From a virus, in IMG/VR virus record IMGVR_UViG_3300021168_000001, positions 39,270 to 103,269 of that record: DNA of 64,000 bases. One strand, 5' to 3'. Below are positions 35,150 to 39,919 of this stretch, in pieces (positions within the stretch are counted from its first letter, which is position 1; each line of letters opens with the position of its first letter). The notes under the pieces were generated by a model. It saw nothing but the letters and a program-made list of their open reading frames with translations, searched no databases and was not told the origin of the DNA. Both the position numbers and the translations under genes were made by a program.

Positions 35150-35602
35150 ATGAAAGCCTCTTTTGCTCTTTGCCTAGTTCTCTCTGTGCCGGCTGCGGCT
35201 CAGGCGGTCTTGCCTGAAGCACCAGCACCCCACATCAACCGAATTAACGCAGCACTCGATGGCGGCGAAATTCTGATGCGCGAACTTGATGCCGTCTCCA
35301 CGCGAATGGTCTTGTCGAACCCTTGCAGCTGCTTCCATGAGAGCGGCAACCTCGGTTTCATGCAGCCAGCCGCTTCATACGATTGGAGCCAATACGCTTA
35401 CTCTACTGGGATGGCGGCGGGATATATTTATTCCAGTCACCTGCTCTGGAAGGCTGGCAGTAAGCGGCATAGCCGCATCCTGCTCCTCGCATCGCGAGTG
35501 CTGCTCGCTTCAGATATCACCATGGAGACTCGCGCCGACGTCCACAATTTCCACCTCGCAACAATCACCACTCGGCCTGGATTCAAAAAGGTCGGAAAGT
35601 AG
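35150..35602 (+). CDS. Secreted hypothetical protein
   Basis: MKASFALCLVLSVPAAA|Q...LPEAPAP signal peptide. Confidence 0.6.
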   Translation: MKASFALCLVLSVPAAAQAVLPEAPAPHINRINAALDGGEILMRELDAVSTRMVLSNPCSCFHESGNLGFMQPAASYDWSQYAYSTGMAAGYIYSSHLLWKAGSKRHSRILLLASRVLLASDITMETRADVHNFHLATITTRPGFKKVGK

Positions 35603-36495
35603 AAGGGCATCATGGCAGACGATCGTATGCAGCCATTACGCGAATGCTTGGCTGACCTGCACGCTATCCAACTCGCGTCGCACGCGATGAAAGACGTCGA
35701 TGGCAATCACATCGGTCGACTTGACTTGTACTCAATCAATGGCCGCGTACTCATTGTTCAAGTCCATTACCAGCGACGGCTCAACCAACTGAAAGCCGTG
35801 AAGATGGTAGCCGAAGGTACCGAGCCTCTGTCATGGGATTTGTACCGCCCGGTCACCGATGATGGCAAGATCGATGTAACACTCCAGGCGCTTAGGCTAT
35901 GGGCCAAGACTCCAACCGATTTGGACGAACTGGCGCCGAGGATTACGCAAAGAGCACCATCGAAGGCATGACCAACAATGCGACAGACAGCACTGGCGGT
36001 TCGTGGCACGACCTGAGCGACCGCACCGAAGGCTCGGACTTCTTTGTGGAGCAGGCGGTCAAGTATCTCGATACGGCCGGCATCCTAACTTTCGCCGCGA
36101 GGTCGCCCTGGCTTTTGGCGTCGACATCAACCAGCCATCGGTGAACATCGACGAGGATATCCTCAACGAGTTTCACAGAAGGGTCAGGCATTCATGAGCG
36201 CCGTCTATTGCGAGTGCGGAACATATCTCGGCAGAGAGGACCGTCTCAGCAACGATGCATTGCTCGATGATGAGTCAGTTCCATGGTGTTCCGTTGAATG
36301 CCTGTTTGAGCACAGCCCGGAGAAGACCGAGAAGGTTTGCGCTGCATGTCAAGACCGCTTTGACGATAAAGACAGAGTTATCGCCTGCCTGATGCTCCAT
36401 GCGGCCGAAGTGGATCCGGAAGATGCGTGCGCCTATTGCGGCGAATCTCTCGAAGCTGGAATCGATTACCGGGCCATCATCAGAACGAGGAACCA

Positions 36496-37374
36496 ATGAT
36501 AATTCGCGTCGGCTTGCCACATCGTGGCGGGAGACTTGCCTTCCACGCATTCAACCGAGAGTACCCGGCGATGGTCAGCGCCAGTGCCTTCTGGAATCCG
36601 AAGACGCGCGAATTCGTTGTGCCCGAGGCCAGCGACATTTACGAAATTGACTACGCTCTCGACAGCGCCGGATTCACCGCGATGAGGCTATGGCAGGCGA
36701 AGGGGAAGCAGCCAGCAAAGATCCGGCTGCGACCACCATATGGCCCCGCTCACTGTAGCGAGCTCGATGTATTGCTGATACGTCCAGGGGAAAATGCCGG
36801 CAATCCCTGCGAGCCGGAGATCGCGCGGAACCAAGCAGAGATCGATTACCGAATCAACGCCACAGCCACCTTGCTCGAAGGATCACTGCGAGTTGTTCAC
36901 GAATGGCAATCCGAATACCGATGGTTGACTCCTCCGGTCCCAGTGATCCAAGGATGGTCGGCAAGCGACTACCTGCGCAGCCTCGATCTGATGTTACAAG
37001 TTTGGGAACGGTGGCTTCCAGCGCCTGCGCTTATCGGTGTAGGGTCTGTGTGCCGGAGAAGCCTCAACCATCCGACACATGGGCTTTTTGCGATCCTCAC
37101 CGCGCTCGAGGGCTGGCTGCCATCAGGGTCCAGCCTCCATTTGTTCGGCGTAAAAGGCAGTGCATTGTCAGAGCTAAAGATGTTTGACTTTGTGGCGTCG
37201 GTCGACTCAATGGCGTATGACGCAAGGGCACGAATCAAGGCACACAGCGCATCAGCATCCAACAGCTTTGCACACCGATGCTGTGAAATGACGCACTGGA
37301 TGGAGGCCGCACAATGTCGGTCGCGTCTGGTCATCGGCGATCAATTCCGCCTTGCCTTCAAGGCCAGTAGCTGA
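36496..37374 (+). CDS. tRNA-guanine-transglycosylase-like (DpdA-like) protein carrying an inverted 31-codon internal segment
   Basis: LDSAGF, CEPEIA, PVIQGW, GVGSVCRR, LHLFGVK and SVDSMAY motifs. Segment 36715-36807 reads like the expected family sequence only when reverse-complemented. Confidence 0.75.
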   Translation: MIIRVGLPHRGGRLAFHAFNREYPAMVSASAFWNPKTREFVVPEASDIYEIDYALDSAGFTAMRLWQAKGKQPAKIRLRPPYGPAHCSELDVLLIRPGENAGNPCEPEIARNQAEIDYRINATATLLEGSLRVVHEWQSEYRWLTPPVPVIQGWSASDYLRSLDLMLQVWERWLPAPALIGVGSVCRRSLNHPTHGLFAILTALEGWLPSGSSLHLFGVKGSALSELKMFDFVASVDSMAYDARARIKAHSASASNSFAHRCCEMTHWMEAAQCRSRLVIGDQFRLAFKASS

Positions 37375-37380
37375 ATTGTG

Positions 37381-37409
37381 TTGAATTATTCCAATCAAGC
37401 GCATACACT
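37381..37409 (+). promoter_or_regulatory. Sigma70 promoter
   Basis: TTGAAT-17 nt-TACACT; spacer contains TTCCAATCA. Confidence 0.65.
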
Positions 37410-37463
37410 TCTTTCACTCAATGTTTCATCAACCCCATCAATCCAATGGGGAAAGGAGATGAG

Positions 37464-37781
37464 ATGGGAATCGCAGCATACAATCGTGGCTCTCGTGCAA
37501 TCAGCCAGCGCATCGACTCTCAACAACGGGCGGCGGAATTCGAGCTCATGAGCCACCTCAATTCGCTTCCAAAGTATCCCGACTGCGGCCAGCCACCCGC
37601 TCAAATCCAGTTCGTGTTTGAGCATGGAGTCTGGTGGGCGCAATCGAGCAAGGGCGCGGCAGGCTTCGCCTACTACTACCCAACTCTGCGCGAGGCGGTG
37701 CGCCGGTGGAACGTCTCGATTCGCGGCTACGCTGACGGGATCTGGATCGGCGACCCATTGCCACGCGAGGTGCAGTCATGA
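37464..37781 (+). CDS. Hypothetical protein
   Basis: Preceded by a GGAGATGAG leader. Confidence 0.6.
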   Translation: MGIAAYNRGSRAISQRIDSQQRAAEFELMSHLNSLPKYPDCGQPPAQIQFVFEHGVWWAQSSKGAAGFAYYYPTLREAVRRWNVSIRGYADGIWIGDPLPREVQS

Positions 37782-38416
37782 CTGTCTACGCTTTAGGTTC
37801 GGACGGCGCGAACGGCACCAACGTTGGCATCTTCACATCGGAGGCTGACCTTTACCGCGCCCTGGCAGATGACATCTGCTCGCCTGCCGAATTGGATAAG
37901 GCGCGAGCACTGATCGACGCTGGAAACATCGAAGGGGCCAAGGAATTCCTCATCGATGAAGTCTCGCCACCTGAGTTCTACACTTTCTCAATCGATGAGA
38001 AAGATGTTACATCCGTGCAGAACAGCGCAGCCATTACTGTACTTCGAGCGATGCGCGAAGAACTCGAAGCCATGTCCGGCTATTGGACAGAGCGTATGTC
38101 CACACTCGCGCAGGCCGCTGACGAAGTTTTGACACCGCCGCCAGCATCATCCAATGCGTTGCCAGCAAGCACTAGACCGGAGTTGCCAGAAGAATCGCAA
38201 GAGGTTGAGGTCCGCATCCGCCTTGACGTGTGGGACTTTGAGCAATTCCGCGAGGCCGCACGCAAGCGAGCTCTCGAAGACGGTCTGGACGAAGAAGAGG
38301 CTGCGGAGTATCTCGACGAAGAAGAGAAGAGTATCGGCGAGTGCGCAATGATGCTCCTCGATCCCGGTGTCGGTCCCGCAGGTTCTGACGTCGAAGAATC
38401 CTCATGCATCGAATAG
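37778..38416 (+). CDS. Acidic hypothetical protein
   Basis: ATGA-coupled 212 aa ORF. Confidence 0.6.
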   Translation: MTVYALGSDGANGTNVGIFTSEADLYRALADDICSPAELDKARALIDAGNIEGAKEFLIDEVSPPEFYTFSIDEKDVTSVQNSAAITVLRAMREELEAMSGYWTERMSTLAQAADEVLTPPPASSNALPASTRPELPEESQEVEVRIRLDVWDFEQFREAARKRALEDGLDEEEAAEYLDEEEKSIGECAMMLLDPGVGPAGSDVEESSCIE

Positions 38417-38453
38417 AACCGGCAGCGGAGCCGCTGCACAGAGAACCTTCCCC

Positions 38454-39200
38454 ATGGAAAAATCCATAATCGCGTGGACTGACAACACGTTCAACCCCTG
38501 GATGGGCTGCATGAAGGTCTCGGCCGGATGCAAGAATTGTTACGCCGAGACTCTAACCAAGAATCGAATGGGCCTCGACCTGTGGGGTCCGAACAGCACC
38601 CGCCAGGTGACTAGCGACTCGTATTGGAAGCAGCCATTTAAGTGGGCACGGGAGGCCAAGAAAGCTGGCGCGCGGCGGCGAGTCTTCTGCGGTTCTCTCT
38701 GCGACATCTTCGAATCCCATCCGATCGCCGACGAGACTCGCCCGAGGGTATGGGACATCATCAAAGCCACACCGGAGCTCGACTGGCAGCTGCTCACCAA
38801 ACGGCCGGAGAACATTGCAGCGCGGCTTCCGAAACAATGGCCACTGCCTAACGTTTGGCTCGGCACATCGATCGAAGATCGGAAGGCCTGCGCACGGCGC
38901 GACATTTTGGTGCAGGTTCCAGCTGTCGTCCATTTCCTCTCGCTGGAACCACTGCTCGAAGATATCGCTAGCACGCTCAACCTTGAAGACATCGAGTGGG
39001 CCCTGATCGGCGGCGAGAGCGGCCCTGGATACCGTCCCATGGATCACCAATGGGCTCGCAATTTGCAAGAGGCGTGCAAGAAGTCCGGCACCGCATTCTT
39101 CTTCAAACAGTCGGCTGCATTCCGCACTGAGATGGGAATCGAGCTCGACGGTCATATTGCCCGGTCCTACCCAACACCGCAGTTCAATATCTTGGTATGA
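38454..39200 (+). CDS. DUF5131 (phage Gp37/Gp68) three-Cys-motif protein
   Basis: IAWTDNTFNPWMGCMKVSAGCKNCYA, LLTKRPEN, SLEPLL, GGESG, FFFKQ. Confidence 0.92.
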   Translation: MEKSIIAWTDNTFNPWMGCMKVSAGCKNCYAETLTKNRMGLDLWGPNSTRQVTSDSYWKQPFKWAREAKKAGARRRVFCGSLCDIFESHPIADETRPRVWDIIKATPELDWQLLTKRPENIAARLPKQWPLPNVWLGTSIEDRKACARRDILVQVPAVVHFLSLEPLLEDIASTLNLEDIEWALIGGESGPGYRPMDHQWARNLQEACKKSGTAFFFKQSAAFRTEMGIELDGHIARSYPTPQFNILV

Positions 39201-39919
39201 AACGATTCTACACAGATCGACTCGTGAAGCGCTTATTCGGCGGCTACGATCACTGCGTATGCGGTGAAGGTGATTGCCCTTTTCACATCGCCTATTGCGC
39301 CTGTGGCTGCGAGGAACCGGTAAATTATCGACGCAATGGAACTCCAAATATTTGGGTGCGTGGCCATGAACGGCGCGCCAAACGATGGACAGATGAACGT
39401 CGGCAAAGCTTTTCTGCGAAAAAGAAAGGTTGCCGCGGAATCTGGAAGGGCAAGACACTGCCCGAGTCTGCCCGCGAGAACATGCGCAAGGCTCGTGTTG
39501 GAATGACGCTGTCGCCTGAACATCGACACAATATTGGTCTCAGCATCACCGGTCGCAAATTCTCAGAAGCGACTCTGGATAAATTACGCGCTCACCGCCA
39601 TACGCCAGAGACAATCGCAAAGATGAAAGGCCGCACCGGATCACGCTGCCCAGCATGGAAAGGTGGAATTTCCTCCATCAATAACGCACTTCGCAACTCA
39701 ACGGAAGCGCGCCAGTGGAAACGAGAAGTGTTTCGTCGCGATAACTTCACCTGCCAGGATTGTGGTGCGAAAAGCTCTCGCGGCCACAAGGTCCACATCC
39801 AGGCTCACCATTTGCAAAGTTGGTCAGAGTTTCCAGCACTTCGCTTTGAAGTGAGCAACGGTCTCACGCTCTGCCATCTCTGCCATGGCATTCGACACGG
39901 GCGCAAATTGCGTCCATAA
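39197..39919 (+). CDS. NUMOD3-repeat HNH endonuclease
   Basis: CACGC, NUMOD3-like repeats, VFRRDNFTCQDCG...AHH...NGLTLCHLCH. Confidence 0.85.
   Translation: MKRFYTDRLVKRLFGGYDHCVCGEGDCPFHIAYCACGCEEPVNYRRNGTPNIWVRGHERRAKRWTDERRQSFSAKKKGCRGIWKGKTLPESARENMRKARVGMTLSPEHRHNIGLSITGRKFSEATLDKLRAHRHTPETIAKMKGRTGSRCPAWKGGISSINNALRNSTEARQWKREVFRRDNFTCQDCGAKSSRGHKVHIQAHHLQSWSEFPALRFEVSNGLTLCHLCHGIRHGRKLRP

Follow-up and report, generated by a model that had tools for sequence, protein, structure and literature searches.

Does the only dpdA-family gene of an uncultured soil phage contain a piece of its own coding sequence turned around in place, and if so, is the turned piece a switch for DNA modification, a fixed mutation, or a product of assembly? 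The gene was found in a stretch of 64,000 nucleotides (here called the window, to which the positions below refer), which corresponds to bases 39270-103269 of an IMG/VR virus record of 103,269 bp in all. The record has direct terminal repeats, a CheckV completeness of 100%, and a GC content of 55.5%, and its DpdA profile match identified a single dpdA copy. The original prediction, made from the letters of the window, was that a short segment of this gene had been inverted in frame, and it offered all three readings. Coordinates of the features are collected in Table 1.

The start ATG of dpdA overlaps the stop codon of the upstream cysteine-rich open reading frame (ATGA), which suggests that the two may be translationally coupled. 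The upstream frame encodes several CxxC-like pairs, had no match in Pfam and PHROG searches, and was not seen beside bacterial DpdA homologs. As written, the dpdA product matched the Pfam DpdA family (PF23859) at 53.4 bits (cut-off, 27), with the match confined to residues 131-278, whereas the match of intact homologs begins at about residue 51. Its PHROG match was PHROG 1279 ("queuine tRNA-ribosyltransferase"). A large protein collection held 1137 homologs (best nonself match, 63% identity), and those with names were mostly from Burkholderiales and were labelled DpdA-family or DUF7221; measured against NCBIfam DpdA, the phage clade (DUF7221) is distant, scoring only 15-18 bits. Several intact bacterial homologs are borne on plasmids (L003, L005, L015, and L030; the plasmids being pTA2.1 and pTA2.2 of Paraburkholderia sp. 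A1BS-2L, Cupriavidus pTMH.W2_2, and a Burkholderia ambifaria plasmid scaffold), and the clade therefore extends beyond prophages. Approximately 1 kb downstream of dpdA (38367-39919, plus strand), a DUF5131 (Gp37/Gp68-type) gene (240.6 bits) stands immediately before a gene for a free-standing HNH endonuclease, whose NUMOD3 match is weak and subthreshold (17.1 bits; cut-off, 20.4). DUF5131 also occurs near the DpdA homolog at two bacterial loci (L042 and L044).

TABLE 1 Features of the phage dpdA locus (window positions) and truncated bacterial relatives (positions in the named locus)
Feature	Position	Strand	Remarks
Cys-rich ORF upstream of dpdA, 101 codons	36194..36499	+	ATGA overlap with dpdA start
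dpdA-family gene (DUF7221 / PF23859 clade)	36496..37374	+	292-codon open frame as written
Left breakpoint microhomology, CAG	36713..36715		Equivalent inversion ends
Inverted 93-bp segment	36715..36807	Coding sense now -	Residues 74-104: FPW..QY helix, barrel strand, QPDLC with invariant Asp
Right breakpoint microhomology, CTG (complement of left CAG)	36807..36809		Equivalent inversion ends
Truncation after residue 72	L062:1406-1490		tblastn HSP end
Truncation at about residue 80	L063:4181-4260		tblastn HSP end; L056 begins there
Truncation after residue 102	L057:4241-4320		tblastn HSP end
Truncation after residue 104	L061:4252-4330		tblastn HSP end

Both translations claimed for the segment, as written (plus strand) and as its reverse complement, were reproduced exactly, and the flipped peptide joined in frame to give ...KGKQP-GIAGIFPW...QPDLC-CEPEIA.... 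The flipped version of the gene was built by script, and the intact homologs P0006 and P0004 were used as stand-ins for Pfam, PDB, and structure work. The conserved motifs that the flip was expected to restore are indeed those of the family: the flipped peptide fits the consensus G[IM]AG[IV]FPWTYxQY[IV]ELA...GA.WWSQPDLC-CEPEIA, and all 11 aligned homologs (11/11) carry G[IM]AG[IV]FPW.Y.QY[IV]E.A...GA.WWSQPDLC, then CEPEIA. In the alignment with these 11 homologs, as-written residues 74-104 were pushed into gaps. Comparison of both versions with homologs, the check put forward with the original prediction, gave the expected result, with the flipped version aligning gap-free over both junctions and scoring 515.4 bits against an HMM of 119 homologs, versus 429.8 bits as written (+86). 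Within the segment, the columns with at least 95% conservation were matched 9/9 by the flipped peptide and 1/9 by the as-written one, a difference that is far beyond chance; outside the segment, the phage protein matched 82/82 columns of that conservation. The change is an exact in-place reverse complement, with 0 bases gained or lost, and from these alignments the phage dpdA is judged to sit in a disrupted orientation. Because the segment, once flipped back, is no less conserved than the remainder of the gene (identity to homologs, 67% for the segment and 65% for the remainder), the inversion is dated by this comparison as recent relative to protein divergence, with the segment showing no decay. 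A genome-wide codon-usage scan for antisense-like 31-codon stretches, which was underpowered, ranked the dpdA segment 549 out of 24,527 windows. No relative above 63% protein identity was present in any collection searched, and the evidence for the ancestral DNA is thus indirect.

The 3-bp terminal inverted repeat (CAG/CTG) noted at the ends of the segment was borne out, in that inversion of 36713-36809, 36714-36808, 36715-36807, or 36716-36806 gives one identical product; a search for inverted repeats longer than 3 bp at the breakpoints found none. At a random pair of breakpoints, the chance of microhomology of at least 3 bp is ~0.05 (our own calculation, with equal base frequencies), so that the repeat points only mildly to microhomology-mediated joining. 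Both orientations are stop-free, as had been observed, yet this is unremarkable, since 94/261 (36%) of the codon-aligned 31-codon windows of dpdA remain stop-free once inverted. As an in-place inversion also always keeps the downstream frame, the open frame is uninformative.

The DNA around the junctions may have a weak tendency to form hairpins. In restored DNA, a perfect 7-bp inverted repeat (TCGCAGC-N9-GCTGCGA; codons S-Q...C-C-E; 36780-36832) lies across the right breakpoint, and the left breakpoint, in the restored orientation, is enclosed by a GGGGAAG/TTTTCCCC-type stem. With single-stranded DNA folded in 141-nt windows, the segment was the most stable in the gene (-26.4 to -26.8 kcal/mol versus a median of -20.5 kcal/mol); compared with shuffles, folding of the restored junctions gave a z of only -1.3, which was not significant. 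The junction sequence hints at being locally recombinogenic. A TseI/BbvI-type cut-and-flip at the nearby GCAGC/GCTGC was considered and rejected, its symmetry centre being 2 bp off the observed inversion (hand check).

The as-written protein is on record, in identical form, from two contigs. The phage occurs in a single public run, a soil metagenome from 2018 (3.1 Gb) that contains all sampled words of the 8-kb stretch around dpdA and is probably the source sample of the IMG/VR record. A Logan contig (12,749 bp; depth, 12.4) spans 35500-38000 with 0 differences, 0 indels, and no joints. No alternative-orientation junction was found among the Logan contigs of the soil run, in which a minority orientation under ~15% would escape notice at depth 12, as contigs hide rare variants. 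A search for relatives in the phages collection, and searches of IMG/VR by protein and by junction 27-mer, returned none, and an internal 37-mer gave no second contig among JGI metagenome contigs.

An artefact of the sequencing library or of assembly, with the natural phage in the canonical orientation, is an unlikely source of these sequences. The phage is known from a metagenome assembly of one sample at modest depth, and an artefact, too, would present as an exact flip in place with its conservation undamaged; the IMG/VR and Logan (k=31) assemblies, moreover, rest on the same reads, and a library artefact would be common to both. Against this, the IMG/VR record and the Logan contigs are identical over 2.5 kb, and amplification chimeras seldom yield a precise two-junction in-place inversion, nor do they dominate the consensus. 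In de Bruijn assembly, junction 31-mers must occur in the reads to be assembled. A pure assembler misjoin is very unlikely, because the 3-bp repeat is too short and such an assembler needs the k-mers of both junctions in the reads.

A programmed, reversible intragenic inverton, which would toggle phage DNA modification as a bet hedge between restriction and defences against modified DNA, is distinctly improbable. Intragenic invertons are defined by a recombinase-recognised pair of inverted repeats, an invertase, and the presence of both orientations in reads, and the inverted repeat of the thiC inverton has 11 positions (PMC10028968). The phage segment shares with the "recoding" invertons of Chanin et al. 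(PMC10028968) a short inversion inside a coding sequence, recoded without a stop and open in both orientations. A trade-off between on and off states of dpdA is also documented (bioRxiv 10.1101/2025.10.29.685425), and reversible inversion, too, would predict an undecayed flipped-back segment. However, openness arises by chance at the rate given above, and the phage case has no recombinase-type repeats (just 3 bp, with none longer at the ends), no phage invertase gene, and one orientation in the contigs, where a single uninterrupted contig lacks the alternative junction; its carrier, besides, is a phage rather than a Bacteroides-type host. A profile search of the complete 103-kb phage genome with PF00239 and PF00589 found zero serine or tyrosine recombinases and no resolvase or invertase, though an enzyme encoded by the host could in principle act in their place. 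Among homologs, 119 proteins and 64 genomic loci were all canonical, none with the segment on the minus strand. More doubtful still is a reversible inversion without classical inverted repeats, in which a host or phage factor acting on the hairpin-prone junctions would toggle 7-deazaguanine modification as the same hedge between restriction and defences against modified DNA. The three readings offered at the outset have thus fared differently: a fixed micro-inversion is favoured, because two assemblies agree, the repeat is 3 bp, the phage has no recombinase, and no homolog is flipped, while the switch gained no positive support and the artefact is unlikely.

We consider it likely that the phage carries a spontaneous, recent, in-place micro-inversion (91-97 bp), a loss-of-function allele of the only dpdA in its 103-kb genome. 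The locus shows what characterises a micro-inversion, namely an exact in-place flip whose two breakpoints carry a short inverted microhomology and lack recombinase sites. Like spontaneous small inversions at very short inverted repeats, it combines an exact flip, microhomology, a single orientation, and gene disruption; in the phage the microhomology is 3 bp, and the frame was left open, with the gene caller seeing an intact gene. Illegitimate recombination using the 3-nt microhomology would have created the inversion, either through template switching from one strand to the other during replication or through the misjoining of two breaks, there being one product only from which to judge how it formed. 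The process may have been assisted by hairpin-prone DNA at the junctions, for which the signal is weak (z, -1.3). In the population sampled, the inverted allele would then have reached fixation or dominance.

The AF2 model of the intact homolog P0006, which is of near-equal length, had a pLDDT of 94.3, with helix 83-92 and strand 97-99 at 96-98. Its top Foldseek match was the DpdA crystal structure 7UI4, and it aligned with Z. mobilis TGT over 264 residues (VIA-align Z, 21.4), so that the intact homolog is, as modelled, a TGT/DpdA TIM barrel; a PDB sequence-level search with the DpdA clade gave nothing usable, and the link to 7UI4 and TGT is one of fold search only, without residue-level pairs. 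Modelled from the same alignment, the as-written protein retained the remainder of the barrel, fell to a pLDDT of 43-51 over residues 71-100, and lost strand 97-99.

In Salmonella Montevideo DpdA (7UI4), the general acid/base is Asp95, the base is bound by Asp130 together with His181, and the nucleophile is Asp256. None of these three active-site Asp residues varies across the DpdA and TGT enzymes, and replacement of Asp95 or of the nucleophile Asp by Ala abolishes exchange (PMC10164549). Three Asp residues are likewise invariant in the phage clade and follow one another in that order (D56 in DSAGF, D102 in QPDLCCE, and D239 in VDSMAYD; P0006 numbering). The as-written phage protein keeps D56 (DSAGF) and D237 (VDSMAYD) but has Gly where the middle one (D102) should be; the modelled fold of the intact homolog is that of the DpdA/TGT family, and the phage copy, as written, is without the middle Asp. 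Flipping the segment back restores it. The "likely catalytic Asp" predicted within the segment was right as to an invariant residue regained by the flip and less so as to its role, which is more likely base recognition than that of nucleophile; judged by residue order and invariance, the lost Asp is probably the equivalent of Asp130. With 31 conserved residues swapped for unrelated ones, the as-written DpdA would be an inactive transglycosylase, a prediction drawn from conservation and structure modelling. That it is instead a functional recoded DpdA, or that its new 31-residue loop has given it a new function, is barely credible: the frame is open and all 82 conserved columns are kept elsewhere, but that conservation is accounted for by recency, and the new peptide, which has nothing comparable in other family members, fits one of nine conserved columns, is without the invariant P-D and W residues, comes out as disordered in the model, and costs the barrel a strand.

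No QueC, QueD/PTPS, FolE (GTP cyclohydrolase I), or radical-SAM QueE of preQ0/G+ synthesis was found in the whole phage genome, and QueF and YhhQ/Vut_1 were also missing from it in profile searches. The phage, with a dpdA and no preQ0/G+ synthesis genes, therefore belongs to the "DpdA-only" group, with which it shares the DpdA profile match and the need that it would have for host preQ0/preQ1; phages of this group would rely on host preQ0 (Hutinet et al. 2019, PMC6884629). The genome, rated complete with terminal repeats, lacks a tyrosine integrase and a serine recombinase, and because no integrase or recombinase was detected, its gene content suggests a nonintegrating (virulent) lifestyle.

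Under the favoured reading of a fixed micro-inversion, the phage lineage would no longer insert host-derived 7-deazaguanine (preQ0 or preQ1) into its DNA, and the allele may be drifting neutrally or may have been selected as an escape from a host defence that attacks 7-deazaguanine-modified DNA. Loss of dpdA function can be selected: phage HK243 escapes the Dag1 glycosylase by DpdA G217E and in exchange becomes sensitive to restriction (bioRxiv 10.1101/2025.10.29.685425). The soil phage would share with the HK243 escape mutants the abandonment of 7-deazaguanine modification via a dpdA lesion; HK243 represents a laboratory point mutation under known selection, whereas the soil phage is uncultured and its lesion is an inversion.

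Many bacterial copies of the DpdA clade are broken as well. Approximately 8 of ~19 lesions lie in residues 72-104 (11% of the gene length), where they appear to cluster in the stretch that is inverted in the phage, the positions being tblastn HSP ends (~+/-3 residues) and the clustering a raw count. Besides the truncations in Table 1, there are frameshifts near residues 78, 84, and 94, and the lesion set also includes L044, L045, L050, and L056. The truncations at residues 72 and 104 are within a few bases of the phage breakpoints. DNA past the truncations held ordinary chromosomal genes and no mobile elements. Were the repeat-independent toggle true, this clustering would reflect an intrinsically recombinogenic site.

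As a mutation, the micro-inversion is of an ordinary kind; it is the gene carrying it that is interesting. If both orientations were present in reads, it would be an inverted-repeat-independent switch for phage DNA modification and of real interest. As it stands, the allele is consistent with the documented trade-off of phages losing dpdA function and adds no new mechanism to it. It would be a clean, natural, in-frame micro-inversion in which gene callers and family models see an intact gene while part of the catalytic core is gone, and annotation pipelines, in labelling such a phage "DpdA-positive", would predict modified DNA for it and probably be wrong.
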